Position numbers and translations under genes: made by a program. Positions 3,731 through 42,611 of a stretch of DNA of 64,000 bases are shown one piece after another; the stretch's first letter is position 1, and the number at the start of each line of letters is the position of its first letter. The notes under the pieces are model-generated. The model made no database searches. It saw only the letters and a list, made by a program, of their open reading frames with translations, and was not told where the DNA came from. The DNA comes from Isurus oxyrinchus (lineage: Eukaryota): the NCBI GenBank assembly GCA_026770705.1, contig JANJGN010000036.1, positions 2,542,001-2,606,000 on the forward strand, given 5' to 3'.

Positions 3731-3904
3731 CTTACCTCTTGCTCCTGTTATTGTTTCAAATTTAACCCTCAACGTTTGACCCCATTAGCCTATATTTATG
3801 GATGGTCTATTATATATTTTACGGTTGTCGCCGATTCCGAATAGCAAGTATTTTCTCTCTCCCTGCCAAAGCAGGACCCATAATGTTGATTTTGTAACGC
3901 TCAG

Positions 3905-6900
3905 TTATTGTATCTCCATCAAATTTGTCCCAGACTTCGGAGGTTCAGAGTCTCTGGCTTGGAAGTAAAACAAGGTGCATTGTGACACTGCATAGTTGGC
4001 GGTGGTGGGGACAGGGCGGTAGATTGGTATAAACCGAACCAGCGGACGCATGTGCGACTGGTTTACACGGTAACAGAATACAAAACTACAACAGGGAGAT
4101 ATTCGGGAGAAGTTCACCAGAATCGACGCTCTATTCTCTGACTATTGCAGGTGTCCGGGCCAGTGATGCGGACATGTATTATTGTGTAGCTACGAAGCTC
4201 AGTTCGATGTCCTTTACGTTTGGAAATCGTTCAAAATGGTTTATCACAGGTACAAATTACGATTAATTTACATTTTGTATCATCAATAATCAGGAGGTTA
4301 AGGCCAATAGTGATCGAATCTCAGCGCCCGATCCCACCACGTTCCCCAATAATCGGCATTTTAACTCCGCCTCCACATGAAATTCTCTCTGTCGGCGGGG
4401 ACCTACTGGTGAGTTTGGTGAAGTATCTGGGTCCCGATTATTTTGCCGTCCGCTGGAATGTTTCCGGACGGGATGCCCAGGGACAGAAGGATTCCAGGAC
4501 AATCGAGTTGGACCGAACCGGCACCATCAGAAGTTAAATACTTCTCTGGGCGGAAAATTGAAGCAGCGGCGCTCTCTATACTTAAGCCGTTCAAATCAAC
4601 TCCAGTGAAAATCTTCCAATTGATATTGTCTCATCTCAGAGACGGAGTTGTTAACAGGTACTTCGTGCTTTTAATGTGCGACCTATTTATTCGTAACAAC
4701 TCTTTGCACATTTGAACTCCTCCCTTCAATGTGTTTACGTGTCATTTTCCGACCCCTTATCCCGCTATCATGTATCTCATCATTTCAGTATTCATCTATC
4801 TGCATTCTTAAGCCACCTTTCTAGCTGGAATAATAGCGTATGGAGAGAGAAAATCTATTTTGGCCTGTCAATAATTAAGTAAAATCCCAATTTTCTGTTT
4901 ACCGCTTCTTTCTCTCTCGATTCCTGTATTTTATTCTGTGTATTCCGTAGAGCTTCCAGCAATGACGCAGTGCTTTCTGCCCTTTGGCTAAGTGCTAGCG
5001 TTTCTGCTCCAAAGGAACCTCCTCCCACCCCTCTTCATCTCACCCCAGCAACTTATCCTTCCACTCCTTTCTCCTTCATGTGCTTATACAGCGTCACCCA
5101 TCAACGCATCTCTGTAATTCACCTCAGCCACTCCCAGTGGTAACGTGCTCCACATTCTCCCCGCTCCCTGTTATTGGAAATTAGAAATGTTGTCAGATCA
5201 CACTAAAAATTTACCGAAAAAACACTAAAATCTCCAGGCAGACTAGGCCACTAAATATAGCAAGCGTTGAAGATTACCTGATGAGCATTGCATAACCTTG
5301 AGACCCTGACTGGGGAGACAATCAGGATATAAATCCGATTAAGTGTACTCTCCTGTCACATAGGGAAGGGGCAGATGGTTTTAGCTTAGATATGGGAGGA
5401 CATACAATAGACAAAGAGGGGACTTCGATGAAACGCAAGCTGTCTTGAGCTGTGGGAACCAGTGTTTTTGAGTATGTGTTTTAATTTTGGATAATCTAAT
5501 TATGTATACCTGCTTTAGAATAATTGGTTAGCAAAATCACATGTTTATGTACTCAATATGATAGTTAACATTAGAAGGATGTGTCGGTGACCGATTGGAT
5601 GTATTCAAATGTACTCAAACGTATTATGTTAAGGAAAAGTACAAAAGTAATGAAACACAATAAACCTGGGAGCTGGGTCTTCATTTTTAGGAATGATTGC
5701 AGCTACCATGCACATGCTTGAATAAAATCGTTCACAGGAATCGTGAGTCTCTGTGGTCGTTGTGTGATCGGGGATAATAACTTCCCCTCTTCAACTGGCC
5801 GATGTGGTAGTTCCAGGATTGGAGGGAGTACCTTCTTCACTGGTTACCCCACAGACTCCTCTCTGCTCGAAAAAAAGAAGCCAGCCTATCCAAACTTCCC
5901 TGATTGTCATAACTTCTCAGTTTTGGCATAATTCCAGCAAACCTTTTCTTTTTCGCAATTGCCCCTGTGCCTGCATATTCTTTGTATGATATGCAGACCA
6001 GAATAGTTCACAGGACTCTATGTATGGTCTAGCTAAGTTTTGATGTAGCTTTAATGCCGCCTTTCTTCTTTTCATTGCTGGGCCTGGTTTTTATCACCTT
6101 ATTTACCTCTTTCACTAATTTCAGTCATGTTTGTCTTGTGCCTCAGAGCCCTTTGCTCTTCTTTCCGATTTAATCGCTTGTTTTCCAGTGAGTGTTTTGC
6201 CCAAACCCTATCACTATATCTAACCCAAACCCCAATCATACTCCTTCCTAGTTAAACGGCCCCTATATATCATTTCATCCAAGACAAAGGAAAGGAATCC
6301 GCTGGTTGGCTATAAGGCACTTAGAATTTCATGCCTGGCAGACAAACCCTTAACATCAATTACTATTTTCAATTACTATTTCAAGCTTAACACATCTAGA
6401 TAGAACCTGTATGGAGTTCCATAAGGGCTTCATGTGTTTGTGTTTTATAAATGTATCTATGTATCCCTCACTCGCACATGATCTTTTTTTCTAACTCTGT
6501 ATCCATCTATCTATCTATCTATCTATCCATCTATCTATCTAACAATCTATCTATCTATGTATGCATGTATCTATCCATCTATCCACCGCCTCTCTGTCTC
6601 TCTCTTTCTTTCTCTCTCTCTTTATAATTCTCTCACACGCCGTCGACGTGACTGTCTCTCTCTATCTAGCCATCCACCTACCTTCAAATTTGTAAATTTG
6701 TTTCGCTTGCCTAATAAATGTCGAATTTTCATTTTTATGTGCTTGGTGATGATGGTGACATTCACAGGGCTGACTTCGTTTCGGCATCCCGAGCACCACT
6801 TTGTATGTGGTGCTGGATCTCCTTGAACCTTGTGCAAGAGCCAAAAAGCTCGGGTTGTGGGATTTTTTCTGAAATCCAATGAGATTTTTTCAATTTACGT

Positions 6901-8069: not shown

Positions 8070-8408
8070 TGACCGTCTCTCAGGCCGCGTTCCCGCAATC
8101 TCCGGCCGCTCAGACCGTCTCGGTGGGCAGTAGCTTCAAGGTGCATTGCCACACAGGCTGGTTATCAAGTGGAGCTGTTTACTGGTATAAACAGCGGCAC
8201 CGAGAGCACCTGCAGTTCGTTCACAAGGTGAGAAAGCACATCCCTGCAGAGGGAAGGTTTTCAGGAGAAATCAACGACAAATCTACCATTTACTCCCTGG
8301 TGATCGAGGAGGTCCAGAGAAATGACTCGGGTGTTTATTACTGCGCAGCACGGAAAACCCCTGGAAAGTCCCTGGTCTTCGGGACCGGCTCCAAATTGTT
8401 CACCACAG
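8070..8408 (+). CDS. Germline-joined V-J Ig domain exon of copy 2 (open reading frame)
   Basis: 339-nt phase 1-1 exon with B-strand Cys, WYKQ, YSLVI, DSGVYYC and FGTGSKL in one exon. No RSS. Confidence 0.85.
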
Positions 8409-8464
8409 GTAAAAAAAAAGAGAAATGAGATTGTTTACTCGCTTTATCACTGTTTTTTCCTTCG

Positions 8465-8805
8465 CTCACGGGATGTGGGTGTTCTGGCTCGGCAAAGCAT
8501 TTATTACCCATCCCTAATTACACTTGTTCAGGAGGCATTTAACAGAAGGTGTGGATCTGGAGTCAGATGTAGGGTCAGACCGGGTAAGGGCGGCAGATTT
8601 CCTTCCCTAAAGGGCATTAGTGAACCAGATAGGGGTTATTTTCTTAATGATGACAATCGATTCCTTGTCATCATTAGACTTTTAATTCCAGATTCTTATT
8701 CCGTTCCAATTCCTCCCTCTGCCGATTCGAAGCCGGGTCCCCAGAGCATTACTCACTCTCTTGATTACCCCAGCCCAGTGAAAATACCACTCCGCACCGT
8801 GTCCC
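8465..8805 (-). mobile_element. HE1-like shark SINE in the V-C intron of copy 2
   Basis: Reverse-complement homology to the SINE at ~11690-12180 (ggaaatctgccg..., aattagggatggg, cccacatccc). Explains why this intron is 462 nt versus ~90-102 nt in paralogues. Confidence 0.65.
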
Positions 8806-9289
8806 CCAACAACCAATAACCAGGAATTCACGGTGAATAATAATTACATCTTACCTCCCAAACTCGCCAGGTACGCCGACAATATTCCTTTTAGCTCCAC
8901 CAGTGGAGAAGCTGTTGAGATGGAGACTGTCCCATTGATGTGTTTGGTGACCAACGCGGCCTCTGTTACCCTTTCCGTTCGCTGGAATTTTTCCACGTGG
9001 GAGACAGAGGGATGGACGGATTCTGGAACAATCGACTCCAAAGGGGTGTACAATATAGGAAGCCTCATCAGGGTCCCACCAGGAACGTGCAGCGGGGGCG
9101 GGTTCTGCACTTGCTCTGTTCAAATCTCCTCCACTCAAAGTCTCATCAGTGAAAGGTTCTCATATCAGAGAGGTAACTATTGACATTGTCCCTTTACTGG
9201 TATAGTTAATTATTGATGTGAGACTGAATGGTTCGCGACACCACATATGTTATCTTAATAGTTGTTCCCTTTCCATGTATATGGACACA

Positions 9290-9905
9290 GGCACAGATTC
9301 GTAGAAAGTCTACAGCACAGGAAGAGGCCATGGTGCCTGCCTCGTACAAAACCGAGCTACCCAATCCTACTTTCCAACATTTAGTCCGTATTCCTGCATC
9401 TTACAGCGCTACAGAAACACATCCGGTTGCCTTTTAAATGAATTGAGGGTTTCTGCCTCTCCTGCCCTTTCAGCCAGTGAGTCTCAGACCCCTACAACAC
9501 TCTGGGTGAGAAATATCTTCCCTCGTCTCCCCTCTAATCTTTCTACAAATCACTATAAACCTGGACAATGACATCTCTGCTAAAGTAAAAAAAAACATTC
9601 ACATCCCCTCTATCCAGACTCCACACAATTTTGTACACATCAACCCCATCTCCCATCAGCCTCCTCTGCTCCAAGGAGAATACTCCCAGCCTATCCAATG
9701 TTTCTTCATAGCTGAAATTTTCCAGTCGTGGTAACATCCTTGTCAATTTGTTCTGTATTCTCTCTAATGCAATCAAGCCCTTTCTGTAATGAGATGACCA
9801 GAACTGCATACACAACTCACGCTGCAGCCTAACTCATGTTTAATACAGTTCCAGCATAGCCTCACTGCTCTTGCATCCTAAACCTCGTCTAATAAATGAA
9901 AGGAC
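9290..9905 (-). mobile_element. CR1-type LINE 3' fragment
   Basis: Minus ORF CMQFWSSHYRKGLIALERIQNKLTRMLPRLENFSYEETLDRLGVFSLEQRRLMGDGVDVYKI. Confidence 0.85.
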
Positions 9906-10235
9906 CTCGGGCTAATTACCAGGTCAATTACCTCTTCCGTATCTCTCAATGTTTCAGTGTTTAGCTCCCTAAAATTTGAAGCTCATCTGTTTAACTATGC
10001 CAGAGATGCATGGTGGGAGATAAGGAATCAGGCTGAAATTTTGCAGTTTAAACTAGGAAAATTGAAATTCAATTTCCAGTTTGAAACTTGAGCAGTATTT
10101 TGCTTCTATCCTCCCAAACGCATCCATTACAATACCATCAACATGTGCTCTTACCCTCATATACCTTTTTCCGCCGTGTGTTTAGGAGTTTCTCTGCAAT
10201 GAGACTTCCGTTGTATACATTTCCACATTCTAACG

Positions 10236-10400
10236 ATAAAAGAAGCAAAATACGGCGGATGCTGGAAATCTGAAGCAAAAACAGGAAAAAAAAAGGCCTG
10301 GAGAAGGGTCACGCAGACTCGAAATGTTAATTCCGTTTCTGTCTCCACAGATGCTGTCAGGCCCGCTGAGTTTTTCCAGTATTTTCTATTTTTGTTCCTC
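10236..10400. mobile_element. Older Penelope-derived inverted-repeat remnant
   Basis: gcggatgctggaaatctg... and ...gactcgaaatgttaa...gctgagtttttccag: a diverged relative of the 44822 and 57734 elements. Confidence 0.6.
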
Positions 10401-11689
10401 ATTCTAACCACCCTGAACAAAAAAAAAACACGGTTTCCCCTGAAACGCCAGTTGGGGTTCATAATTGGCAGAAGAGCTGAAAGCTCGACATTCCAGGAGT
10501 CAAAGCGGACTTTGCATTAAATTCAGATTGATACAAGAGTATGGGGAGTAGGTCCAAGTAGTGGAGCCGAATTTTGAATCCTTTGGCGAAGAAGAATGTT
10601 CTCCAATAGACACTAAACCACAAGACAACAATAACACTATCAGAGACAAAGTAAGCCACTTGATTGGCACCTTATAAATGCTCACCCTCTGCATGGGCCC
10701 AGTGGCAGTAAGATCTACCATCTACAAGATGTCCTGCATAATTTTGCCATGGTCACGTTGTTCTCTAATCTTATTGTGTTTTCTTGAATGTACCTCTTAG
10801 TCCTTGTCTCTTCCAGTCTCGCTCTTTCTCGCCACCAATCTGTCTATCCCTTTTTATTTTCATATTTTTATTTCACTCGGGTTGTTGATTATACTGGTAA
10901 AACTAACTTTGAGTCCCCATCCCTATTTTGAGTGGGCGTTGGTGTGTATCCTTGAAATTTTGGCAAGTGACAATCCCGTGTAAGGGATTCTTCAATATTG
11001 TTTCTCCCCCCACCCCACCCCACCCCCTCACCCCCGCTACCCCTACCCCGCCCCTTGCTCAGAGCCGCGAATATCTGCTTGTCTCCTGTTGTTTTACAGA
11101 AGTTCGTTGGTGATCTTTCTCCTTCTATTGACCTTGACTGTCGTCGCCGGATGGAGCTACATAAAGCGACATTCAGGTAGGAAGGGCTGTATATTTTGGG
11201 GGCTCTACACACCTGAATGAGAGTCGATGCAACCTTTGCCTCTTTTTGACACGTTAAGTAAAGCTATCAGGGTAAAAATTACAGACATTTATGCCCTTTT
11301 TTATATATCAGGCAACGGGAACTCGGATAAGACATTCACGGATTCTGGGTCACGTGAACGGAACCAAGAGGTAAATACATGGAGACTTTCTTTTGCAGTT
11401 TCTTGACGCTGATTTTATACAACAACCTTTATGCGGGATAGTTATGGTCCCGAAAGTCCACTAAGCTTCTCATAGTCAAAATGGCACCATTTACCATTTT
11501 GCTAGAACTGGAAACAGCTGGAAATATACATCTGGAGATTTAATAGCAGTACTGATATTTAATGATTTTTCAATCGAACGATAACAGGGTTAAATGGTTG
11601 AATTATGAGATCAGGTAGCACATATTTGTTGTTTATACTGAAGAACAAGTCATGTTCCAATTGTAATGATTAAGCTACTTAAATTATCT

Positions 11690-12180
11690 ATGGGTGATGT
11701 GGTGGCAGAGTGCTATTGTCACTGGGCTACAATTCCAGTGTAATTACCTGGGTACCCGGGTTCCAATTCCAGCGCAGCAGATGCTTCAATTTGAATTCAA
11801 TCATAATTTGGAATTCAAAAATCTCGAAACCATGGCTTATTGTCATAAAACCCTCTGAAGGAGGTCCATATGGACTCGAAATGTTAATTCCGTTTTTTTT
11901 CTCTCCACAGATGCTTCTAGACCTGTTGAGTTTTTCAAGCATTTTCTGTTTTTGTTTCAGATTTCCAGCATCCGCAGTATGTTGCTTTTATTATATTGTC
12001 GTAAAAATCCATATGGTTCACTAATGCCCCAAAGGGGAGGAAATCTGCCGCCCTCACCTGGTCTGGCTGACACGTGACTCAAGACCCACAGCAATGTGGT
12101 TGACCCTTAACTACAATTAGGGATGGGCACTCAGTGCTCTCCTAGCCAGCGACGCCCACATCCCATGAACGAATAAATAA
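11690..12180 (+). mobile_element. HE1-like SINE interrupted by a Penelope-derived fragment (~11853-11993)
   Basis: tRNA-like head (gtggcagagtg...ggttccaattcc) and AATAAATAA tail. The internal insert is flanked by the direct repeat tattgtc(a/g)taaaa. Confidence 0.6.
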
Positions 12181-13249
12181 ATGATTGGATAAGACGAGAG
12201 AATCTGTTGCAGCCGTGAATGCTAGTGAAACAAACCTTAACATTTGGAGCAGCCGTTCAGAAGTGACCTCGGGGAGCACCAGAACACAAATAGGGGAGGT
12301 GGGGATACCAACTAGAATTTGATATTTACATTCAATCCTAAAGCATTGCGAAGTATTTGGAGATAGAGACCAACCATGATGTAATTAAATGGGGTGTCAA
12401 GGTCCTGGGCCGAATGTCTTAACGCTGCTCCTGATGTCTATATGATGATAATAGTTTCTATTTTCCCCCATAGACTCTTTATGCTCGCCTGGAGTTTACT
12501 GCAGATCCGACGTCCTAATGGTGAAGAACAGTCACTGGATGAAGCAGGAGATGACGCGTTGAAGAACATTTCCACCATGGAATTCAGTAAGAAGCATTGT
12601 CCAGTGGTAATTCCAACATTTACCTCGATCTTGTGCCGTGCTCGTGAGTTTTGACCCTCAGTGTCATAGGTGTGGAAATGTAATCTAGAAGGTGTCAGCA
12701 CTTCGCCTAGACGGTGTTTCACTTTTATGTTAATGATGTAACATCCACCTGTCACCAACGAGTGACCCCTCAGATGTATTTCCCAATATAGAAACGATTT
12801 AGCACTTATTGTGGATTTGTCATTTTTATTGTTCTCATTTTTATTATTATTATTATAATTATTATTATTATTATTATTATCCGTCACGTATATGGCCATC
12901 GATGTTATCTTAACATGAACACGGACATATACAGAGATATAACTGCATACCTAAACATTGTATAACACTGCAAAATGTGGTTTCCTCAAACAAAGAGAAA
13001 CGGCAGAGATAACACTGTAGATCAGTGCCTGTCGAAGGAACTGCTCCTTAATACTTAACTGAGCCTTCTATTATTAGTTCTCAGTGCGGTTTCCAGTTAG
13101 ATCGATAATGGGGACTGGATTCGAATTAAGGTGATGAATACAGACTCCTAATGAGCTATGTTAGCAGAGAGACATATCCCTTCCTATCTGAAGCTAAATG
13201 CAGAGAAAAGTATCAAACAAGCATTGCTGGTTTTAAATCGAAGAATGAG

Positions 13250-29780: not shown

Positions 29781-32769
29781 TCCCAATTCCCGATTTACAG
29801 TTATTTCTGGGATGTTACTTATCGTGAGAAGTGATGCAAAATTTGGACATGGACACCTTCAGTACCTGAGCAGTCGCGAATGGAATGGTATTGAGCATTG
29901 TGTAATCATCAGTGGACAAGTTAAAAAAAGGCATCGCATTTACTTGGAAGTCCAGCGTCACCATAGCCTGTCATTATAAATGCAAGCATTCAGCACCTTT
30001 ACCTTTCATCTCGCAATTCCCAAAGACAAGCTCTCTTCACTAACTTTCCCCAGTTTAACTACCCGTGAACACCCACACACACACACCCACACAAACACAC
30101 ACACACACACACAGACACACACACAGAACTTGCTTTACAGACTACCACCAAAACACATATAAAACCAATATCCATCTTCACGCACTGAACTTCAGTCAAT
30201 CACCTTGTTTGCATTTCCGCCAATGCACTTGCACAACAAAATGAAATGGTCACCAGCTTCAGCACCTTTCTGGGGGAGGGACATTCAGATTTACACTCCA
30301 CATTCCACAAAACTTGTTTGTCTAAAACGCAATGCAATGACAGTAAAAGTCTGGCATGTAGGTTTAATGTTGAACACAAACCAAAAGTCAACGTGAGAAA
30401 ATGATATGCAACCATGAGACATTTCCTGCATCACTGCCCGTGTCCCTCTCCTTCTGTGTTCCAATTGTGTAAATGATAGAACACATCACATCTCAGACAA
30501 TGAAACCCAACGCTAACAGCATCTCAATACAGGACTGATATTGTCGGCTGAACAGAAATTGCAGTTTTATTCAAATGGCATTTAATTATAAAGTAATTAA
30601 TAATCATTACAATCATTCGGTGCATCGTTAAAATCGCAAAGTAATTTATTTTATTCAGATGCAAACATTAAGAAATCAACATCCTGTCAGTAACTGGAGT
30701 TACAGGATCAGCAGAAAATGCCCAGAAAAACGATGGAAGGTCCCTACTGCTTGCTCAATGTTTCCCTCACACTTGAGATGCACGATGACGGTGGAATATC
30801 CTTAACAATATCCAAAACAAATTCTACATTTAGCAAAATAAGCCAGTCTTTGTAGATCTGGGCAGTGAACGAGGAACGCTTATTTGTTTGAAAGGAGTCT
30901 CCTTTGCTCCATGTTGATTTCCACAAAGCTGTTGGTTCTTTGGCAATTCCTGTCTCCTCCATAATTCATCAGACAGAAACAGTCCCGAATCTCAGCTGCG
31001 ACCTGCCTCTTGTTTGATTTTTTATCCAATGCAACCAAGTCCAGACAGGCGTAGAGAGGTCTGCCTTGGGTCTGGGAGACATACTTAAACATTAAAAATC
31101 GAAAGTAATAAAAGGACAAGTCAGATTATCCACTTCCCCAACCGCGTTTCATAGAGTCATGGAATGAAGCAGCGCAGGAGGAGGACATTCGGCCCATTGC
31201 GTCTGTGCCAGCTCTGCGAAAGAACAATGCAATTAAAAACATTGTATCTTCTCTGTCCCCATATCGCTGCCAGTATTTACCCTTTGACTGTGTTTTTGTA
31301 ATTCCTTCTTGATAGTTATTATTGGACCTTCTTCCAATGCCCTCTATATCAGTTTGAGGATTTTTTTGCTTCATCTGTCTGAATTGAGACAGTGAAGCAG
31401 GACCCGGAAAGCAACCGAAAATCACCAAAGTTTAATCAGAAAACTGGGATGATGAGTTTATCAATTTGATTGGATTGTATTGTTGTTAATTAGCCAATCC
31501 GATCCCCATGTTTCATGATCAGCCATCTACACGATTGAGTAGAGCCAACAGCACGAATCACATTCCGAGGAATCACACTCACATACACCCAAAAGTAAAA
31601 GACTTGCGTTCTCTTGGCCTGTCACGAACTAAAGAATCCTCAGAACATTTTACACTCACCTATTTCAGGTGTGGTCTCTATCCTTATTGCAACCGGACAG
31701 CCAGTCTGCGCACAGTAAGATCCCATAAACCACAATGTTGTAATGACCCAGATTGTTTAAAAGATGTTGGTTCAGAGACAACGTAAGAAACGGAGCACCA
31801 GGAAGAGCCGCTCCCCAACAGCCCAAGCACTGCTCTTCTTGCAATAGTGGAGGTGCCATCTTTTAATTGACCTGAGAGGGCAGACAAGGCCTCAGTTTAA
31901 TGTTTCATGCGCAAACAGCACCTCAGACAGCGCAGCACCTGCTCTGGTGGTTCAGAATAGATTTTCTGCTCAAGTCTCTGGATACACACGCACACACACA
32001 CTCACACACAGAAATNNNNNNNNNNNNNNNNNNNNNNNNNNNNNNNNNNNNNNNNNNNNNNNNNNNNNNNNNNNNNNNNNNNNNNNNNNNNNNNNNNNNN
32101 NNNNNNNNNNNNNNNNNNNNNNNNNNNNNNNNNNNNNNNNNNNNNNNNNNNNNNNNNNNNNNNNNNNNNNNNNNNNNNNNNNNNNNNNNNNNNNNNNNNN
32201 NNNNNNNNNNNNNNNNNNNNNNNNNNNNNNNNNNNNNNNACATGCATGGAGATGCAGACACAGTCACAGACACACACAAACACAGACACACACACATACA
32301 CACACACACTTTCTGCCCGAACTGGTTCCATCTTTGTCAATTTACAACGGAAATACATGTTGATTTATCTATAAAACTCCTTTGGGTTTTGCCTTAACTT
32401 AATCGTAATTCCATTGGCTAATATACTTACTGAATTGGTTGGCGTGGGGAGTCAGAAAGGTGGGAAACAAGGGAGGGGGATTCGACTCACTGTAGGCGCA
32501 AATAAAAATAGCAGAAAGACAAAAAGTTTAGCTGCTGGAAATCCGCAGTGAAATTACTCTGCCCTTTGTATGGACAGATGGGGAGAGGAACTTGGGGTTA
32601 TGTTCTGAGTCCACGTAGAGGGATGAGTAGCATTTAGTACAAATTTAGATGTTCCAGTCTGGGACCTGGTTTCTATTAACCATCTGAAATGTGCAGCATG
32701 GGATTCCTTGCAGCTTATCCCAGAAAAACACGTGTTTGTATATTATTACAACAGTGTAAAAAAACTCAC

Positions 32770-35634
32770 CGTTATTGCATCCTGACATGCCTGCTTAGCC
32801 TCTGTTTGACGGTGGTCGCCTGTGTTATTAATGGTTATGATCAGAATTGAAATGTTTCCCAGCCTGGCTAATCCATAATTAATTACAGACACACCATGTG
32901 ACAATGATCCGCAAATCTTCCAATTGCCCCAATATGTCAATGGGCCCCAGATGTCAATGGAGCCCCAATCCACCGAAGCTTCCCCAATACGTGAAAGGTC
33001 CCTCAATAATTCAGTGGAGCGGTATTCACCATTGGGTGGACAGGCACTATCTACTCCTGGTGCTAAGCATCTATTCTCCATCTGGTCTATTACTAACAGT
33101 ATTGTACCAGTAATTGCCATTTTTTATAGGGCCCACAGGCAGCAGAGCGATTGTAAAACATTTTGATAACAGGGAATGGTCTTAAGCATTTTTCCAATTC
33201 CAGCCACTTGTCACTCAATCCGTGCTAACATTTGAATGCAACTTACCGTTTGTCGCTCATTCTGTCCCTCTCTTTGCCTTTTCCCTCTCAAGCTAAAACT
33301 GGCTTCAAACAAAAAGATCAAACATGTCTTATGTATTTTAAATCCTGGGCTCAAGTGCCAGAAAATGTTGAGAAGGAATTTGTCGAGTGGTCGTAGAATA
33401 AATCTTAAAAGATCATGGAAAATGTCAGCATATATCATTGGAATCAGAGTTGGATTTCAAACGGGTGAGGCACATTGTCCAATGTAGAGAAGGTGCTCGG
33501 GATGAATTTTGTAAATGGTTCAGTTACTCAATTTCCATTGTGGGATCTCTGGTATCGTTCTTCTAAAAGAAGAATCTGCAGTTAGCATTTCAAAACTACA
33601 AGAAGGGAACCAAGTGAGACAAACAATTATTAAAATATCCCTGATAAATATCAATTCTCACCTGATCTGCCGCTTTTAAGAATCCAAATGGAAATAAGGA
33701 CCAAGAGTAGAACCAGTATCACCAGGACTGTTATGAGAACAGGAGGGGCCAGACTGCACCATCCTACAGAGACAAAACACTTAGAACCTGCTGCTCGGTC
33801 AAATCATCCTTTTCTGGGATTATCTGATGGGAAAAGTGACCCAAATGGAAGCCCAGAAACAGTCCATTCGGACGATCGTGCCAGTGCAGGCCCTTTGAAA
33901 GAGGTATCTAATTAGTCCCATTCTCCCTGCTCTTCCCCGCCCATAGCCATGTAAATGTTTCCCCTCCAAGATTGATCCGATTCCCCCTTTTGAAAGTTCC
34001 TATCGAATCTGCTTCCACCGCCGTTTCAGGCAGCGCCTTCCAGATCACAGCAACTCGCTGCGTTTTAATGAATTCTCCTTATCACCCTCTCTGGTTCTTT
34101 TCCCGATTCTCTTCAAGCTGTGTCCTTCTGGTTACCGACCCCCCTGCCAGTAGAAACATTTTCTCCCATTTGACTCCATCGAAACCCCTCATAATTTTAA
34201 ACGCCTCGATTTAATGTCCACTCGATCTTTACTGTTCTAAGGAGAACAACACGAGATTCTAGTTCCTCCACATTAACTGAAGTCCGCCATCGCTGATCCC
34301 ATTCAATTAAATGCCCGCTATACCCTCTCTAAGGCATTCTTGCCTGTTTCCTGCTTCTAAAGTACATCCAGTGCAGAACGGACGTCAAATCCATTCCAAA
34401 GTGCACCGCCTGTGAAAAAAAGCAGTGGAAGTAGATTCAACAAAAATTTTCAGAAGGAAACCCCGTTATGACTTGGAGAGGGAAATGTGAAAGGGCTTTG
34501 GGGAAACTGATTTCAAAGTTGAATAAAAACCTTCATTGTTGAAATAACATTCTCACCTGTCCCTACTGCTCTGGGGAACGACACGCACTTTATCCAATAT
34601 TTGACTGAAGACCCCAGTTGAACAATACAAATACAAACAGCGGCGCTTCTCCGGGTTTCCCTCAGCACCACGACGTGACTTCTGATACTGTAGGCCCCAT
34701 CCGCCTCCATTGTACAGGGATCTCTCAGTCCATCAGTGGCCAGGCCGGAAATATTCCCGAAAATAACAATCTGGTTGGAAGAAACTCCACTGACCAGACA
34801 CACTAAGGGGACCGTTTCCCACAAATGCAGCTCACCTGCGGAGCAAACATCAGCACAGCCGCCTTGTTGGTGGAACTCTCTGGACAGAGATTGGGGCACA
34901 GTTAGTGATTAATTTGCACAAAATGATAATACTCTGCATGATCGGAATTCATTTCACTTGCTCTCTCACCTCCAACCAGTAGTGTTGGTGCATTCTGTAT
35001 CGGTACATCGCTACCCCAACGAGCACAGTGATAGGAACCCGAGTCATTCACCTGGACATTGCGAATTTCCAGAATCATCAAATTTGTGCTGTTGCCTTTT
35101 TTTGGAAATAAACTTTCAACCGGTCTCCTGACAGGGCTGGCTGTCGATTAGTGTCGGGGCTTCACCCACAGGGTGGTTGTACCAGAAATAGTGAGACACC
35201 GATTCCACTTCGTAACCGCACGGATTCCACCGTCTCTCCGACTTTAGCTGTCGTGATGATGGGGCTCTGAGACAGGCAGGGTTCGGATTCTGTAACTAGA
35301 GGGATTTTTGTTACATTATCACTGGTTAATGAGGGATAGGAAGCTGCCGCTTTGAAACATTTCACATTTAATTTAAGCAAAGTTACATCATTGGCTTTAC
35401 ATATTCTTGGTTAGATTAATTCTCCAATTAGATTTTTTTCGCTTCATAAGAGGAACTAGTAAACATACTCACATGATTAGGTCAAACTCCTTCACCTGGC
35501 CTCTGGGTTACATTTTCAGTTTAGTAAACACTGATTCTGGCTCATTCAAGTTTCAAATTCTCCCCTGCCTCTTACTCACCATATACCCGCAGCATCTGGA
35601 GAATAAGCATCAGAATTAACGATTCCAATGACAT
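32770..35634 (-). pseudogene. Type 2 V-C1-TM Ig-superfamily receptor pseudogene (distinct paralogue family)
   Basis: Leader 35580-35634 (MSLESLILMLILQMLRVY). V 34970-35295 (CGYEVESVSHYFWYNHPVGEAPTLI...LEIRNVQVNDSGSYHCARWGSDVPIQNAPTLLVG; two frameshifts and a TGA at 35116-35118). C1 34557-34879 (ETVPLVCLVSGVS...DGAYSIRSH...AVCICIVQ; frameshift near its start). TM 33662-33763 (GWCSLAPPVLITVLVILVLLLVLISIWILKSGRS). Phase-compatible cytoplasmic exons 33247-33302, 33030-33081 (weak acceptor) and 32770-32819. Last exon unresolved. Confidence 0.85.
33860..34340 (-). mobile_element. CR1-type LINE 3' fragment in the C-TM intron of the type 2 gene
   Basis: Reverse complement reads ...gtgttgttctccttagaacag...gaggcgtttaaaattatgaggggtttcgatggag..., a typical CR1 tail. 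Confidence 0.65.
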
Positions 35635-35813
35635 CTTGACGCGCTGAGTATTTCCTGTTTTCGCTCTCACCAGTTTAGTGATTGCAGGCGGAGTGGCCGC
35701 AGACAGCCCTGAGCTCAGTCGCAGTCAACAGCTTCACTTTCAGATGCGTTGGAAACTATGACGAGTTATGATATGGAAAATATGACGCCATTTTGGGTGG
35801 GTGTCCTGGTGAA

Positions 35814-35906
35814 TACCACATGCATTTTTCATACTGTGGTCACCGTTTGTGCCTCACAGCGGCCAAGTCGCAGCATGTTTATAAATAAATTTACTGGGTT
35901 GTGGTT
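35814..35906. promoter_or_regulatory. Cluster of three RUNX-type motifs upstream of the type 2 gene
   Basis: ACCACA 35815-35820, TGTGGT 35835-35840 and TGTGGTT 35900-35906, 180-270 bp upstream of the ATG. Motif match only. Confidence 0.35.
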
Positions 35907-37957
35907 CATTGTGTCGAGGGTGCGGGTGTCAAAGAATACTAATTGGGTGTATGGATGCTGAATAGTGTAGTTAAAGTTTATTTCATTCTGGGGATATCAT
36001 GGCCTCTGGCAAGGCCAGAATGCATTAACCATCACCGAATGTCACTTGGGAAGGTGGTGGTGAGCTGCCTTCCTGAACCACTGAAAGTACACACACAGTG
36101 CTTTCAGGGTGGGAGTTCCAGGATTTTGAATCAATGGCAGTGAAGGAACTGTGATGAATTTCCAAGTCAGAGTGATGAGTGGCATGGAGGGGAATTTGCA
36201 GTGGGCGGTGTTCCCAAGTATTTGCTGAATTTGGATGTCAATGTTGCAGAGTACGCAGGTTTGGAAAGAAAACGCCAAGAATTTAGTGTTATGTGATAAT
36301 ACTCACTATTAGCTATTCTGTAAACAGGTTGTACAGGATTCGTAAGACATTCTGGTTAACACAGAGACTGGATATATTGGATGAAATGTATGTGGATTAA
36401 TTTTAATTTTAATGACATGTATCTTATTCAATATGCACAAATTACGCAGAGGCCTAGAGAGGAATTCTAATGCAACAAACACGATCACTCACTGCACTTA
36501 TCGAGAATCTAAATGAACGAATCTCTTTCGAATTCAGTTCTGCCCCTTAAAATGTTCGTGCACCGTCCTCCTTTCTGCTAAGTCACATTGAGTAGGTTTT
36601 CGGACTGACTTATTCTATTATATAAAGCGCCAGGGGGGGTTACCGTGAATTCAGTTCATTGTTCAGTTCTGAGTTCATTGTTGAATTCTAATTACCAATG
36701 ACTTGAGTGATAGGTCCCGTGAAGAGAGTTTCAAACAATAATACATCTTTCACTTTGCATTGTTATCTAAGCGCGTTTACAGCAGTTCAATGGAAAATTC
36801 ACTGCACAGTTATGAATTTGACGTTGTCGTTAAGCTGCTTTGATGTTGCAGTTTACAGAGTTACATAGAACGTACAGCACAGAAACAGGCCATTCCGACC
36901 CGAATACTCGTGCTTGTGTTTATGGTCTGCACGAGCCTTCTCCCACCCTCTCTTCATCTCAGCCCAACAACATTTCCTTTTATTCCTTTCTCCCGCATTT
37001 GTTTATCCAGCTTCCCACTGAAATGCATCTCTGAAATAGACTGAAGCATTCCCTTTGGGAGCGGGTTCCAGAATCTCCCCTGGGTAAAGATGTTTCCCCT
37101 GAATTTCAGACTGGCTTTATCTCATATTAATCACCTCTCGTTACGAAGGGCGATAGGAACACAGGAGCAGGATTAAGCCATTGGGCCATTCGAGACTGCT
37201 CCACCATTCAATAAGATTATGGCCGATCTGGTTGTGGCCTCAACTCCACTATGCTGTCTGTCGCTCATACGCCTTGACTCCCGTGCCTAACAAAAACCTG
37301 TCCGTCACGGGGCCTTGAATAAATTCAAGGACCCATCCGCGACTACTTTCTGGGGAAGGGAATACCACACATGAGTGACCCATTGGGTGAAAACAAATCT
37401 CGTCATCTCTGTCTTAAAAAGGAGACCTTGATTTTTGATCGATGTCCAGAGATTTGGCAACAACAGGAAGCACCTTCGGGGTATCCGCCCTATCAAGGCC
37501 CCTCAGGAACCTATATGTTTCAATACGATCACCTTTCATTCCTCTAAACCCCAAATGGAATTTTTGAATTCTTGAGTGATGACCAATATTTTTGAAATCC
37601 TGCAGAATTAGAGCCAGCTTCCCTACGGCTGCCTATTTGGACCATTTCATAATTGTAAAGACCTCGATCTGGTCGTCCCTCAATCTCTCATCCCCACCCT
37701 CCAAAACACTTTAGAGAAACGAGCCTCAGCCTGTTCATTCCTTCCTGTTATTTATAAGCTCTCAGTTCCCGTATCATCCTTGTGAAATATTAACTGCACC
37801 TTTATCAATATCTCTGTATCTGAATATGGAGAATATTTCTCGAATATGCAGGACTGTGTTCTGTACTCCAAGTGTAGTCTAACTAATGTGAATACATACC
37901 TGGTGTATTTTGGAAATCAGATGATGCGTGCGCGACAGCACTTTGACCTGCGCTAAA

Positions 37958-37970
37958 CAGGAAAACCACA
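37958..37970 (+). promoter_or_regulatory. Composite ETS/NFAT-RUNX-like motif upstream of the intact gene
   Basis: CAGGAAAACCACA, ~170 bp upstream of ATG 38140. Motif match only. Confidence 0.3.
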
Positions 37971-38139
37971 GAGAGCTGTCTACCTCGGCACTATTTTCCA
38001 AACCCCATCGTTTAATAATAAACATAGAACGCCATTCAGGCTGCTTATTTCACACCTCCTTCGCACCGAAAGAATGAGAGCGAGTTCTCAGTGAGATTCG
38101 GATCGGGGCTCAGAGTCTGACCGCCTGAAGTCAGGGACA

Positions 38140-38182
38140 ATGAGATACCTCGGTGTGTGTGCATTGTCCCATCTCTTCCAGG
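38140..38182 (+). CDS. Copy 4 exon 1, leader
   Basis: MRYLGVCALSHLFQ+G|gtaaga; 43 nt, same length and phase as the copy 3 leader. Confidence 0.8.
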
Positions 38183-41100
38183 GTAAGATATCCTAACATT
38201 TTCAGATAGAGTGAAGGAGGGTTGAGATAGAGTAAATAAGGAGAAAATCGTTCCACTGGAAAGAGGATCGGTAACCAGAGGGAGACAGATTGAAGAGAGG
38301 AGAGCGTTTCAGGTAAACCATTAGAGAAAGTTATAATTTTTTGAACAAAATAAATTGCACAACGTCAGCGGAAAATAAGAAATAGCGAAAGGTGAATGAG
38401 AGAAAAATTTTTAAAAATTGGGAATTTTAAGTCATTAACTTCAGTTCCCATGTGCATACCCCAGTAAATAAAACAGAATTGCTGGTGAATGGACTCGTAC
38501 AGTGCCTTTGGAAAGACCGGGGAAAACAATGCAAACCATCGCTTAGTCAGCCCGATTTTAATTGTGTGCGGGTGCAATTTTCCCATATGGACTATTTTTA
38601 AATAAACGATTCTGCTTCCTCCATATCGGGGTGCATTCGCCGGTGTCTGTCTTCGGGGGCGTCGGGTTGAGGGTGCGGGCTGACGGGCTGCACAATACCC
38701 TGAGATGACTTTTTTTTTTCACTCTTGCTCAGTTATTGTGTCTCATCGTCTCTTGTCCCAGTCTCCGCCGGTCAAGACACTCACTGCAGGGAGTCGCGCC
38801 AAACTGAGTTGTCACACGGAAAGGTCCAAACCTGGGCTCATCTTCTGGTACAGACAGCGAGAGCGAAACGACATGAAGCTGGTTTACACAGCGCATAAGT
38901 TCAGCGCAGCGGAGGGGAGGTTTTCCCGCGAGATTTCTGACAAAGCGGGTTATTATTCACTGGTCATTGCGGATACCCGGAGAAATGACTCTGGAATGTA
39001 TTACTGTGCCATCCGCAATTACCAGAACAGGGCCTTAATATTCGGAAATGGATCCCAGTTAGTGATTACAGGTAAATTTCGTCATTATTCCGTCACTTTT
39101 GGCATTTCCACAGCAATTAAAAGTCTCTGGTTTCAACTGTTAATGGTTTGTCTGTTTCCTTTGCCAAATTTAGAGGACTCCCCGACCATTTTCCTCCTCA
39201 CCTCGCAAGAGGATGAGATTCCTTCGGTGGAAAGGGTCCTGTTGTGTTTGATCAGAGGCTTGTCTCCCGATTCCTTTTCCGTCCGCTGGAATATTTCCGG
39301 GCGGGATACCAAGGGAAAGACCGATTCCGGGACAATTGAGTCGGACGGCACCTACACCATCAGGAGTTACACCAGCCTCTCGGCGGAAACTTGGAGCAGC
39401 GGCGCTCTCTGTACTTGCGCCGTTCAAATCAACTCCAGTGAAAATCTTCTCAGTGCAAGTGTCGCATCTCAGAGAGGTAGCTGCTAACAGTGACCGTTTA
39501 CCGACCTATTTATTGCTGATGGGAGGCTTTGACAATTTTGTAAATTAGAATCGTGCATCTTTCCGTGTGAGTCCATGCATCACCATTTTATAATTGACCT
39601 ATCACAGATCTCTCAATGTTTCAGAGTTTATCTTTCTGAAATTTTAACTCTACCTGTTCTCTCTACCCCAGAGAGCTAGGGTTGCTCAGTCACTGAGCTA
39701 GATAGTTGTACACTAAGGGAATATGGGATCCGGGCAGTGTGGGTAATGTGAAGTTGATGTACAATATTAACCATGGTCTTATTGAATGGCGGATACCCTT
39801 CTGGGATCAAACATCTCCTGCTCCTACTTCTTGTGTTCTTGTGTTTGGCTCGACATATTGACATGGTTGCATGCCAGTGGATGACTTGTCAATGTGAATA
39901 ATTGTAAGGTTTGATTGCAGTCCCAGCGTACCTCTCTGTCTCACCATGCCTGTGTACAATTACCTATTCATCTCTCGATCTACTTAACATCGCAATATTT
40001 ACGTCTGTCTCAGTTAAACAATGAGGTATAAGGTATCTTCTCCACCTGTGTGTCTGTCTGTTTATCTGTCTTTCCATCTGTCTCACTCTCTATCAATCAA
40101 TCCATTTCTGTCCTACTGCAGTCTAAGATATCTGTTTTCCTATTTGTCTGCCTATATATCTGGCTGTCTCTGTGTCTGAACAGAACTGTCTACAACTCCC
40201 ACTCTCTCTCCCTGTCTCTCACAGTCCCTATTACTTTCTCCCTGTCTCGCACTCTGTCTATGCTTTGAAACATGTATTGAACTCTCTATCTATCTCACTC
40301 TCCCTTTGTTCATATTGTCTATTTCTATCCTGGTTAAATGGTGCGTTATAAGACATCTGGGACATTCATCTATCTTTCTATCCTTCGACCTGTCTCCATA
40401 CCTCTCTCTGTTTCCCTCTGTCTGCATCGTGCTCTCTGCCTCTCTCTCTCTCTCTTTGCCTCTATCTCGCTCTCTTATAATTTTCCATCCAGTTAAACCG
40501 CTCTGTGTTAGTTTGCTGCTTTATCTATCACACTCTCTTGATCTCTCCGACTCTATCTTTCTATTTATCTCTCAATCCATCTTTCCACCCATTTCTCCGT
40601 CCATCTCTCCGCTCTTCTCTCCATCTCTCCACCATCACTCCTCCGACTCCCCCTCCTTATCTCCCCCATCTCTCCTTCCTCTCTCTCCATCTCTCCCACC
40701 CCTCTTTTCTCACACTCTCCCTCCCTATCTTTCTGCCTATCCCTGATCTCTCCATCTCTTGTCCACTCTCCCCATCCCTCCCTCTCTCCCCATTTCTCCC
40801 TCCCCGTCTCTCCTTAACTCTTCCTCTCTCCAAATCCCCCTCTCCCCTATCTACCACCTCTCCCTCTCTCTCACTCTCTCCCATCTACCCCTCTCTTCCT
40901 CTCTCCACAAATATCCTTTTCCTCAGCATCGCTCCCTCTCTCCCTGTATCTCCCTTTCTCTCAATCATTTCTCCCTTTCTACCCAACTTTCCTCTTTCAC
41001 TCTCTGATTCCTCTTATCCCCGTTACCCCCTCTCCACCTCTCCAACTATTTATCTCTTTTTTCAACCTAGTTGAGCAGTTTTGTATCAGTGACCTACTCT

Positions 41101-42611
41101 CTCGAACACTGTCCATTTTTCTCCGGTTTAACATTTCTGTGCTAGTAAAACAGAGCTCCATCCATTTCTCTCTGTCATTCTCCCTCTATCTCTCTCTTGT
41201 TATCTCTCTATGTTTCAACGATTTAAATAGTGCTACATAAGATCGTTGCTCTCTCTCTCTCTCTCTATTTCTGTCTCCGATAAACAGTGCTCTATCTATT
41301 TCTCTGCCTCTCAGTGTTCTATTCAAGCAGGGCTATATATGATTGTTGCTCTCACTTGCTATCAATTTGTCATTCTCTTCCGCTATCCCTTCTGCCTCTT
41401 TCTTTCTCTTCCAACTACTGTCCGGTCTCGCAGTTGTTCTATAAGATCTCTGCTCTATTTTCAGGATGATGAAATATGGAAAAATCTATTTCAGTTTTCG
41501 GGTGAAATCGCAAATTCAGGTTTGTCATTTTTTCACTTGTTTGATTAATTCCACAAAATTTATTTTCAATGAAAGCTTTTTTGCAGATTCTCCGCTACCT
41601 GCCACCTGCAGTTTTCCGCTTTTATGGAGTTTGTCCGCGTCGGCGCTTCTCGTTCTGGGGATGATCCTTGTGGCCGGGAAAAGGAGCTGCAGGAACCAGC
41701 AGACAGGTAGCGATTGTTGGGGGGACGCTGTAATTTCGCGGTGCTCTCAATACATAAGTTACTCAATGCGTTCTTGACACTTTCAGCCGGTTCAGAGGGA
41801 AATGGAGCCATTTATGTTCAGTGTGAAATGTAGCCATTGATGCTCAGTTCAAATTTTACTTTCTAACAGGCAACATGAACAATGATCAGGAACTGACAGA
41901 CTCCAGGTCACACCGACAGAATGAAGAGGTAAAAGAATGTAACTGTTGTTGCCACTACACGTGAATGCGTTTCACTGATTTGTTTTATCTAAGCTTTAAA
42001 ATTCATCATTATTATTGTAAGAGTCAGGAAAACATTGCGTCATGTGTAATTCAGGATGGAAGAAATTAGGCTTCAATCCGTCTCGTTCGGGGAGATTGAG
42101 GGACAATCTGAGCGGTTTAAGGTGATAAAAGGACACAACAGTGTCAATAGAGAGAAACCGTCTGCTCCGGTGGCGAGGAGGGGTGGGGCCAGATTGGTAC
42201 AGGGAGTAGCGTGAGGTTGGGATGGGGTGGTGGGGGGAGGGGTGGTGGTGGTGGCTAGAGTCCAGGGCTCAGAACCTTAAAAATAGAGCCAGGTCGTTCA
42301 CGGTTGATGTCCGGAAACCTGGAACTCTCTCCCCTCAAAAGCTGCTGTGGTGAGGTGCCAATTGGAAATGTCAAAATTGAGACTGACAGATTTTTGTTGG
42401 GTACAGGGATTAAGGATTAAGGAACTAAGGTGGGTAAATGGGAGTTATGGTACAGATCCGCCATGATCTAACTGAATAGACTTGAGGGGCTGAATGTCCT
42501 CCTCCTATCCCTATGATGATGGTGTTTGTTATATTTATATATTCGGTTTTTATTGTTTCTCCACAGACACTTTATGCCCACTTGGCTTTTAAGGAGAATC
42601 CCAAACTCTGA
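38140..42611 (+). CDS. Intact non-rearranging antigen-receptor-like gene: leader-VJ-C1-TM-cytoplasmic tyrosine motif (type 1, copy 4), predicted 302 aa
   Basis: Six exons with canonical GT-AG and compatible phases: 38140-38182, 38733-39071, 39174-39476, 41587-41706, 41870-41928, 42567-42611 = 909 nt, no internal stop. The structure is mirrored exon-for-exon in copies 2 and 3. Confidence 0.9.
38733..39071 (+). CDS. Copy 4 exon 2, V domain with fused J-like G strand
   Basis: KLSCHT..IFWYRQ..GRFS..YSLVI..NDSGMYYCAIRNYQNRALIFGNGSQLVIT; AG at 38731-38732, GT at 39072. Confidence 0.92.
39174..39476 (+). CDS. Copy 4 exon 3, C1-set Ig domain
   Basis: PTIFLL..LLCLIRGLSPDSFSVRWNISG..ESDGTYTIRSY..ETWSSGALCTCAVQ, the C1-set pattern. 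Confidence 0.9.
40030..41410. repeat. CT-rich low-complexity tract in intron 3 of copy 4
   Basis: Degenerate (CT)n/(CTAT)n sequence; explains the S/L/P-rich spurious ORFs. Confidence 0.85.
41587..41706 (+). CDS. Copy 4 exon 4, stalk Cys plus transmembrane segment
   Basis: DSPLPATCSFPLLWSLSASALLVLGMILVAGKRSCRNQQT; 120 nt, phase 1-1. Confidence 0.85.
41870..41928 (+). CDS. Copy 4 exon 5, cytoplasmic
   Basis: GNMNNDQELTDSRSHRQNEE; 59 nt, the same length as the paralogous exons 7146-7204, 11312-11370 and 19653-19711. Confidence 0.85.
42567..42611 (+). CDS. Copy 4 exon 6, terminal exon with TxYxxL motif
   Basis: ccacag|TLYAHLAFKENPKL*; 45 nt, as in copies 2 and 3. Confidence 0.85.
   Translation, partial: TLYAHLAFKENPKL

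Follow-up and report, generated by a model that had tools for sequence, protein, structure and literature searches.

Two V-C1-transmembrane (TM) genes, here called type 1 and type 2, stand head to head in a 64,000-nucleotide window of Isurus oxyrinchus DNA (contig JANJGN010000036.1, positions 2,542,001 to 2,606,000). This raises the question of whether they encode the two chains of one germline-encoded receptor, and whether their layout keeps those chains together. The reading that we favor, at a probability of about 55%, is an ancient unit of two non-rearranging genes, each with a joined VJ, a C1 domain, a TM segment, and a tyrosine motif. The intact type 1 chain would pair, most likely in trans with a type 2 chain of the cluster, as a disulfide-linked, Fab-shaped dimer.

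Organization of the locus

A divergent V-C1-TM gene pair was borne out from the sequence, with ATGs at 35634 (minus strand, type 2) and 38140 (plus strand, type 1) and 2,506 bases between them. Both genes have a leader-VJ-C1-TM-tail layout. The type 1 gene is intact and encodes 302 amino acids. Its exons encode a leader (38140..38182), the joined VJ (38733..39071), a C1-set domain (39174..39476), the stalk Cys and an uncharged TM segment (41587..41706, PATCSFPLLWSLSASALLVLGMILVAG), tail exon 1 (41870..41928), and a last stretch with an ITSM/ITIM-like TLYAHL motif and the stop (42567..42611). The VJ exon is intact, with WYRQ, Met50, YYC, and FGNG and no nearby site resembling a recombination signal sequence (RSS); the pairing residues reported initially (WYxQ, YYC, and FGxG, here FGNG) are retained. 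Among the records listed as matching the type 1 V-C1 stretch, none is on record as RNA.

The type 2 gene is a minus-strand pseudogene, which leaves the pair a half-dead unit. Its leader exon (35580..35634, MSLESLILMLILQMLRVY) reads as intact, with a GT donor. The joined VJ exon (34970..35289) is broken, keeps Pro50, and lacks FGxG; the C1 exon (34557..34879) is frameshifted. Intact paralogs match Pfam V-set, and an intact paralog matches Pfam C1-set. The remaining exons encode the stalk Cys and an uncharged TM segment (33662..33763, GWCSLAPPVLITVLVILVLLLVLISIW), tail exon 1 (33532..33562), tail exon 2 (33247..33292, 46 bases versus 47 in intact copies), tail exon 3 (32770..32819), and a last exon (30880..31071). 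Lesions were called against the closest intact paralog, and the frameshifts and stop noted earlier were confirmed. The VJ exon has an 8-base deletion near 35224, a 1-base insertion near 35105, and a TGA stop codon at 35118-35116. The C1 exon has a 1-base deletion near 34843 and a 6-base deletion near 34562. The donor after tail exon 1 is mutated from GT to TT, and 1-base deletions are found in tail exon 2 (one) and in the last exon (several). Sister copies C36:2778362 and 1845138 show the split V pattern as well. The lesions are therefore inherited, and assembly error was ruled out as their source.

The last exon (31071-30880) lies outside the interval 32770..42611 and was missed in the initial annotation, which had described a type 2 tail without a tyrosine motif. 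It reads TQGRPLYACLDLVALDKKSNKR and carries the motif PLYACL, which is PLYASL in most intact type 2 copies, and a basic C-terminal cluster. A type 2 family transcript is spliced in a relative, where the homologous last exon is joined in RNA-like contigs.

The spacer between the two genes (35635..38139) is homologous to the spacers of all seven other units compared, with 68-80% identity over most or all of its length. Those seven spacers are 2.3-2.6 kb in size. In a weak test of the initial view that inserted repeats make up much of the window spacer, 15% of it has at least five copies elsewhere in the 1.07 Mb examined.

A cluster of head-to-head units

The window lies within a cluster that spans 3.5 Mb and contains ~81 type 1 and ~83 type 2 matches, or ~160 gene copies and fragments of both types. 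The head-to-head arrangement recurs throughout: all 34 pairs of family neighbors less than 5 kb apart are type 2/type 1 pairs in this orientation. One further candidate, C2:3519025, was rejected as a family member at 25-31% identity to either V. Intact genes in the cluster number 31 for type 1a and 20 for type 2; intact type 2 genes thus exist elsewhere, where the initial annotation had placed a functional partner unless it lay in another allele. Outside any tight unit are 13 type 1b genes.

Both genes are intact in only two of the 34 units; 19 keep type 1 only, two keep type 2 only, and 11 keep neither. The both-intact units have flaws: an AA acceptor at one tail exon of 631569, no Cys23 in 673267, and an early stop in 677175. 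Sixteen of the 20 intact type 2 genes are outside head-to-head units. Intact type 2 genes are thus 4/34 inside units versus 16/49 outside (Fisher p=0.037); we do not treat this difference as significant, since many of the units arose by recent segmental duplication. Head-to-head linkage does not now keep partners together.

These counts do not support the proposal of strictly cis, co-regulated partner genes. In its full form, each unit would have a bidirectional promoter and encode an obligate one-to-one heterodimer of a signaling type 1 and a silent type 2 chain. The uniform orientation of the 34 tight pairs and the conserved spacer size speak for that model, which is nevertheless improbable and largely refuted already for this genome, given the rarity of both-intact units, the many units with type 1 only, the position of most intact type 2 genes, and the type 2 tyrosine motif. 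On the trans-pairing reading, the window unit would be one copy of an ancient head-to-head pair in which type 1 has survived and type 2 has died, and the partner of the intact type 1 chain would most likely be a type 2 chain from another locus of the cluster. The back-to-back layout would be an inherited duplication unit that may once have coordinated expression.

Domains and the putative dimer interface

Both types score above the Pfam cut-offs for V-set and C1-set. The membrane-proximal stalk Cys was read from the sequence of both window chains, within PATC in type 1 and GWC in type 2, as initially noted. All 31 intact type 1a and all 20 intact type 2 genes have it, as do most of the bony-vertebrate homologs aligned.

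V-domain positions are given in IMGT numbering. The type 2 V segment WYNHPVGEAPTLI carries the Pro on which the original pairing argument was built, and the Leu/Met residues said to occupy the equivalent position in type 1 V domains were found in both EHLQFV and NDMKLV. Position 50 is Pro in 14/14 distinct type 2 and Met in 16/18 distinct type 1 V domains. Both types retain the Fv-type interface residues Tyr42, Gln44 (14/14 type 2 and 17/18 type 1), and Tyr103 (all distinct V domains), and variation is greatest in the CDR-like loops of both. All 18 distinct type 1 V domains have FGNG. In type 2, L-Q-N-G stands in place of FGxG, and position 118 is L or I in all 14 distinct copies; its turtle and alligator relatives, unlike shark type 2, have FGNG. 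The type 2 V is also unusual in having an extra Cys pair, and the B-strand Cys is lost in five of the 14 distinct copies.

In fold, an AlphaFold model of type 2 (mean pLDDT 77) resembles the light chains of antibody Fabs. The best PDB matches of type 1 are TCR alpha and Ig light chains, contrary to the suggestion that its V is VH/TCR beta-like. Since VH and TCR beta are less similar to the type 1 V than TCR alpha and light chains are, the argument that the two types are two halves rests on one residue. Both C1 domains align with the dimer-forming CH3 and CL domains of Ig. On the C1 face (EU numbering), the CH3-394 position is Asp in 31/31 type 1 and 18/20 type 2 genes, and the 407 position is Arg/Lys in 31/31 and 17/20.

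The stalk Cys and the Pro50/Met50 asymmetry support disulfide-linked dimers, and on these residues heterodimers formed in trans are likely. Such dimers would be held by V-V and C1-C1 packing and a stalk Cys-Cys bond. Pairing would be non-obligate; homodimers may also form, because the C1 faces are near-identical in both types.

NKR-P1 and Clr are a genetically linked NK receptor/ligand pair, and types 1 and 2 might likewise be a linked receptor and its ligand, binding each other across cells. This would fit a linkage long kept without one-to-one retention, and the unusual type 2 V, which has an extra Cys pair and lacks FGxG. We consider it very improbable, because both types have Fv-type interface residues and most of their variation in CDR-like loops, and both chains have signaling tails.

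Transmembrane segments and tails

Tyrosine motifs are encoded by 29/31 intact type 1 genes (T-x-Y-x-x-L in 28 and one IHYAGL). The type 2 last exon has P-x-Y-x-x-[L/M/V] in 20/20 intact genes; the canonical hydrophobic -2 residue is absent. Both types thus carry motifs, which removes the distinction between a signaling type 1 and a silent type 2 chain. Any charge within the first 20 TM positions is confined to six of 51 intact genes (four with Arg at the outer edge and two with Asp). TCR-like signaling, implied by the original comparison, does not fit these uncharged cores; because nearly all intact chains have them, the receptors are likely inhibitory rather than CD3-coupled. Under trans pairing, each chain would send an inhibitory or modulating signal through its own YxxL motif, which we take to match the consensus for SHP/SAP-type adaptors. 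A minor type 2 subtype has a transmembrane Arg and no tyrosine motif, and would yield activating dimers.

A tyrosine motif and a stalk Cys on each chain would also suit independent receptors. In that case, types 1 and 2 would be separate homodimeric or monomeric receptors, and their layout no more than what remains of an old inverted duplication, copied onward by segmental duplication. The symmetric C1 faces, the type 2 loss of FGxG, the independent loss of partners, and the 13 type 1b genes outside tight units agree with this. A further parallel, the shark non-rearranging V-C1 protein UrIg2, is described as homodimeric (PMC12227049). Independence is possible, if rather unlikely: Pro50 versus Met/Leu50 is held by lineage, and sharks, a caecilian, and turtles keep both lineages on shared contigs, with equal contig size as the proxy.

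Age and relatives

In the tree, the type 2 (support 98/93) and type 1 (99/96) lineages each hold sharks and bony vertebrates, which places both before the shark/bony-vertebrate split on sequence grounds. The shark genes group there with similarly built proteins of turtle, alligator, lizard, Xenopus, caecilian, lungfish, bichir, and paddlefish. Linkage of the two lineages extends beyond this genome: both types are on equal-sized contigs, a proxy for linkage that carries no orientation, in three sharks (Cetorhinus, Mustelus, and Carcharodon), one caecilian (Rhinatrema), and three turtles (Lepidochelys kempii, Chelonia, and Pelodiscus). If the chains heterodimerize, a germline-fixed V-C1 receptor of two chains would date back at least as far as jawed vertebrates.

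PRARP/VJC1 is a pair of non-rearranging genes of bony fish, amphibians, and reptiles with joined VJ, C1, and TM and ITIM/ITSM-like tails. Chicken PRARP1/2 reportedly formed monomers, homodimers, and heterodimers (Fu et al., 2019), and Xenopus VJC1 genes are said to be treated by Ohta et al. (2019). Types 1 and 2 probably belong to this family, an identity with the named genes that we infer from features which we take to define it. Like PRARP/VJC1, the shark genes have a joined VJ exon without an RSS, one C1-set domain, a TM segment, a tail with an ITIM/ITSM-like tyrosine motif, and two linked lineages conserved across jawed vertebrates (by the tree and the contig proxy). They differ in having ~160 copies and fragments rather than a pair, in the loss of FGxG from type 2, and in the Arg-TM subtype. 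PRARP/VJC1 presumably lie in the region matching human 1q and chicken chromosome 25. Six marker families of that region were searched; none is on C36, and ephrin, Xlink, and S100 matches are together on C12. The 69 matches of a protein homolog search include Xenopus homologs, no bird protein, and none labeled PRARP or VJC1. A literature search found no paper on this shark cluster, and the original PRARP/VJC1 papers may already list shark copies. PRARP is mentioned in PMC10751288 and PMC11599192.

The shark genes share a V-C1-stalk Cys-TM layout with TCR alpha/beta and Ig light chains, and PDB and fold searches match them best to TCR alpha, Ig light chains, and CH3/CL. Unlike these, V and J are germline-joined in a single exon. 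Of the 86 V exons scanned, 84 had no RSS-like pattern; the other two had a weak match each, at the acceptor. TCR chains have basic TM residues that couple them to CD3 and a minimal tail; here, TM cores are uncharged in nearly all intact genes, and the tails are long with their own tyrosine motifs. A true TCR or germline-joined IgL was rejected on the missing RSS, the tyrosine-motif tails, and the separate tree lineages.

CD8 alpha/beta are linked non-rearranging VJ genes whose products form homo- and heterodimers through a stalk Cys, and the shark genes resemble them in linkage, non-rearranging VJ, and stalk Cys. The shark genes differ in having a C1 domain and ITIM-like motifs and in forming a multigene family, none of which applies to CD8. 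As described in PMC12227049, UrIg and UrIg2 are shark non-rearranging V-C1 relatives of antigen receptors that form disulfide-linked dimers, and UrIg2, with many C domains (V-C1 to C9), homodimerizes through a V-V interface unlike that of an Fv. The present genes are likewise shark, non-rearranging V-C1 relatives of antigen receptors; instead of the multiple, IgG-Fc-like C1 domains of the UrIg proteins, they have one C1 exon per gene, and they form a large two-lineage cluster with bony-vertebrate relatives.

A possible repertoire

The cluster might be a working, pre-RAG-style combinatorial repertoire on shark lymphocytes, with trans pairing, variegated expression, and both inhibitory and activating receptors. 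We regard this as unlikely. If true, it would be a living model of a two-chain receptor before rearranging TCR and Ig. With at least 51 intact genes and variable CDR-like loops, the shark expansion could show whether combinatorial pairing is sufficient for a recognition repertoire. Pairing ~18 distinct V domains of type 1a, and those of type 1b, in trans with ~14 distinct ones of type 2 would give a few hundred germline Fv-like sites.

A divergent pair of non-rearranging VJ-C1-TM-tail receptor genes lies head to head in the window, with ATGs at 35634 (type 2, −) and 38140 (type 1, +). The window occupies positions 2542001–2606000 of contig G000:C36. The type 1 gene has six exons (leader, joined VJ, C1, stalk cysteine with TM, and two tail exons), all with canonical splice sites, and encodes a 302-aa product with the C-terminal end TLYAHLAFKENPKL. 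The type 2 gene has eight exons spanning 35634 to 30880, with damage in V, C1 and tail; the window unit is half dead. Sister copies at 2778362 and 1845138 of the same contig have the same split V, so the window type 2 gene is an inherited pseudogene. Re-reading the sequence bore out the ATGs, stalk cysteines and V motifs of the initial annotation. Its type 2 model lacked the final exon, which exists at 31071–30880 (−) and carries PLYACL and a basic cluster. The nearest database homologs are from Carcharodon and Cetorhinus, pointing to a lamniform shark as the likely source. The window also contains a gene of the divergent type 1b group at 8070–12520 (+), with an EHLQFV V domain, an open V exon and an early C1 frameshift. 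Two more decayed type 1 genes, at ~3900–4660 (+) and 22800–19700 (−), carry frameshifts and stops.

Along 0.586–4.10 Mb of the same contig, searches with type 1 V, intact type 2 V and type 2 C1 located at least 81 type 1 and at least 83 type 2 loci, one of the latter being found through C1 alone. All 34 neighbor pairs <5 kb apart are type 2/type 1 units in head-to-head orientation. ATG-to-ATG spacers are 2.3–2.6 kb in all seven other units compared and align with the window spacer across most or all of their length. Solo genes of the main type 1 group (type 1a) match it over 1.3–1.9 kb, much of the spacer sequence compared; in solo type 2 genes the match is 250–750 bases out of at least 760 compared. 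Because spacer homology is kept across units and solo genes, the head-to-head unit is the duplication module.

Loci with a stop-free V match were modeled, together with the window's own; those with a stop-bearing or partial V were scored as broken unmodeled. Among modeled loci, 31 type 1a and 20 type 2 genes are intact. The 13 type 1b loci misfit the type 1 template and were handled apart; a C1 frameshift is present in three and TLDARL in four, and none lies inside a tight unit. Both genes are intact in 2 of the 34 units, type 1 alone in 19, type 2 alone in 2 and neither in 11, counts that are not independent because many units are recent segmental duplicates. Both fully paired units themselves carry defects, and 16/20 intact type 2 genes are found outside units. 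Strict pairing of co-regulated cis partners is not supported, since both are so rarely intact in one unit.

V and C1 residues are numbered by the IMGT and EU schemes. The stalk cysteine is present in all 51 intact genes. Distinct type 1 V copies have Gln44 (17/18), Met50 (16/18), Tyr103 (18/18) and FGNG (18/18). All 14 distinct type 2 V copies have Gln44, Pro50 and Tyr103; type 2 V also has Leu/Ile118, lacks the first Gly of FGxG and contains a further pair of cysteines following the C strand. The canonical B-strand Cys23 is gone in 5 of these 14, two of which also lack the F-strand Cys. Cys23-less type 2 V domains keep a second, non-canonical pair (intact type 2, e.g., L023:4293–4619), and homologs from reptiles and amphibians have counterparts of this pair. 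Paralog identity is ~70% in V, lowest in the CDR-like loops, and ~80% in C1.

The predicted type 2 structure (pLDDT 77, pTM 0.59) matches Fab light chains. Type 1 V had been called VH/TCR-beta-like, which agrees with its residue at position 50; its best matches are also TCR alpha and light chains, so the label depends solely on that position. C1 domains of both types align with CH3/CL, and their outward residues are almost the same (Asp394, Glu399, Arg407 and Tyr/His409 equivalents). This C1 face is predicted to be self-complementary and would not discriminate between homodimer and heterodimer. A type 1/type 2 heterodimer is plausible. Chicken PRARPs reportedly form homo- and heterodimers. The C1 F strand of both types (e.g., window 39174–39476) contains C-x-C (LCTCAV or LCTCIV), and the third C1 cysteine that results is possibly free in the shark proteins.

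A 473-base contig from sequencing run X1 (guessed to be RNA, organism A) aligned to the intact type 2 locus L023 and runs from TM through all three short tail exons into the final exon with the Tyr motif, its junctions falling at the modeled boundaries. Run X2, from the same sample, has C1 spliced to TM. These joins come from a single sample and from a gene ~89% identical to L023, either a paralog or an ortholog; they confirm the type 2 exon model, not type 1/type 2 co-expression.

Almost every intact gene has an uncharged TM core, and the tail motif is TxYxxL in type 1 and PxYxxL in type 2. From the uncharged cores and Tyr-motif tails we infer inhibitory or modulating receptors rather than TCR/CD3 coupling. 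No tyrosine motif had been noted in the type 2 tail; its PxYxxL corrects this, and both chains are predicted to be able to signal. The TM motif N-[VF]-[VI]-R-M occurs in 3/41 modeled type 2 loci on this contig: 586339 (L005), which has a leader stop; 1686272 (L048), which lacks the stalk Cys; and 3958434 (L096), which appears open save for tail exon 1, whose acceptor is AA. In the models of 1686272 and 3958434, the last exon is out of the Tyr frame. A fourth locus, 3894223 (L022), resembles these genes, with a poorly mapped TM. The Arg-TM type 2 subtype without a Tyr motif is likely an activating form. Open type 1 genes at 3908232 (L094) and 3972454 (L097) of this contig have lost the tail Tyr (TLNAQL) and have a TM Asp.

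Type 2 homologs were found in sharks, rays, chimaera, bichir, paddlefish, lungfish, frogs, caecilian, lizard, turtles and alligator, and type 1 homologs in sharks, sawfish, sawshark, lungfish, caecilian, newt and turtles. A midpoint-rooted tree of 46 V+C1 rows, hand-picked from ~260 proteins, supports type 2 (98/93) and type 1 (99/96) lineages, each mixing cartilaginous and bony vertebrates, and also contains a related third group, with members from bony fish, lungfish and coelacanth; a quick 99-row tree agrees. Both types are on equal-sized contigs, a proxy for linkage that is silent on orientation, in Cetorhinus (7,994,003), Mustelus (74,146,782), Carcharodon (396,902), Rhinatrema (74,781,573) and the turtles Lepidochelys kempii (18,816,287), Chelonia (19,202,859) and Pelodiscus (25,597,082). 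The head-to-head arrangement is real and ancient.

The third V-C1-TM lineage (proteins P0060, P0070, P0083, P0084, P0085, P0102 and P0112) is marked by an additional cysteine in the CDR1 region and occurs in lungfish, coelacanth, bichir, sturgeon and pike, with no shark member in the sequence set used. One caecilian protein resembling type 1, P0075, bears the source annotation 'programmed cell death protein 1'.

The type 1/type 2 build matches chicken PRARP (Fu 2019) and Xenopus VJC1 (Ohta 2019), described non-rearranging VJ-C1-TM genes, and the kind is probably known already. Among the marker families used to look for synteny with the human 1q/chicken chromosome 25 region, none had a hit on the window contig, while ephrin, Xlink and S100 hits fall together on contig C12. 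No PRARP-labeled sequence and no bird homolog was among the homologs found by protein search, and no description of the shark cluster on this contig was found in the literature searched. PRARP is briefly mentioned in PMC10751288 and PMC11599192. UrIg2, according to PMC12227049, is a homodimer with multiple C domains, unlike the single-C1 type 1 and type 2. An unrelated open V exon on another contig (G000:C2:3519025–3519390, locus L099) has an apparent J-like end, YYCTVWGSVYGEGTQLIVTS, and more V exons are nearby.
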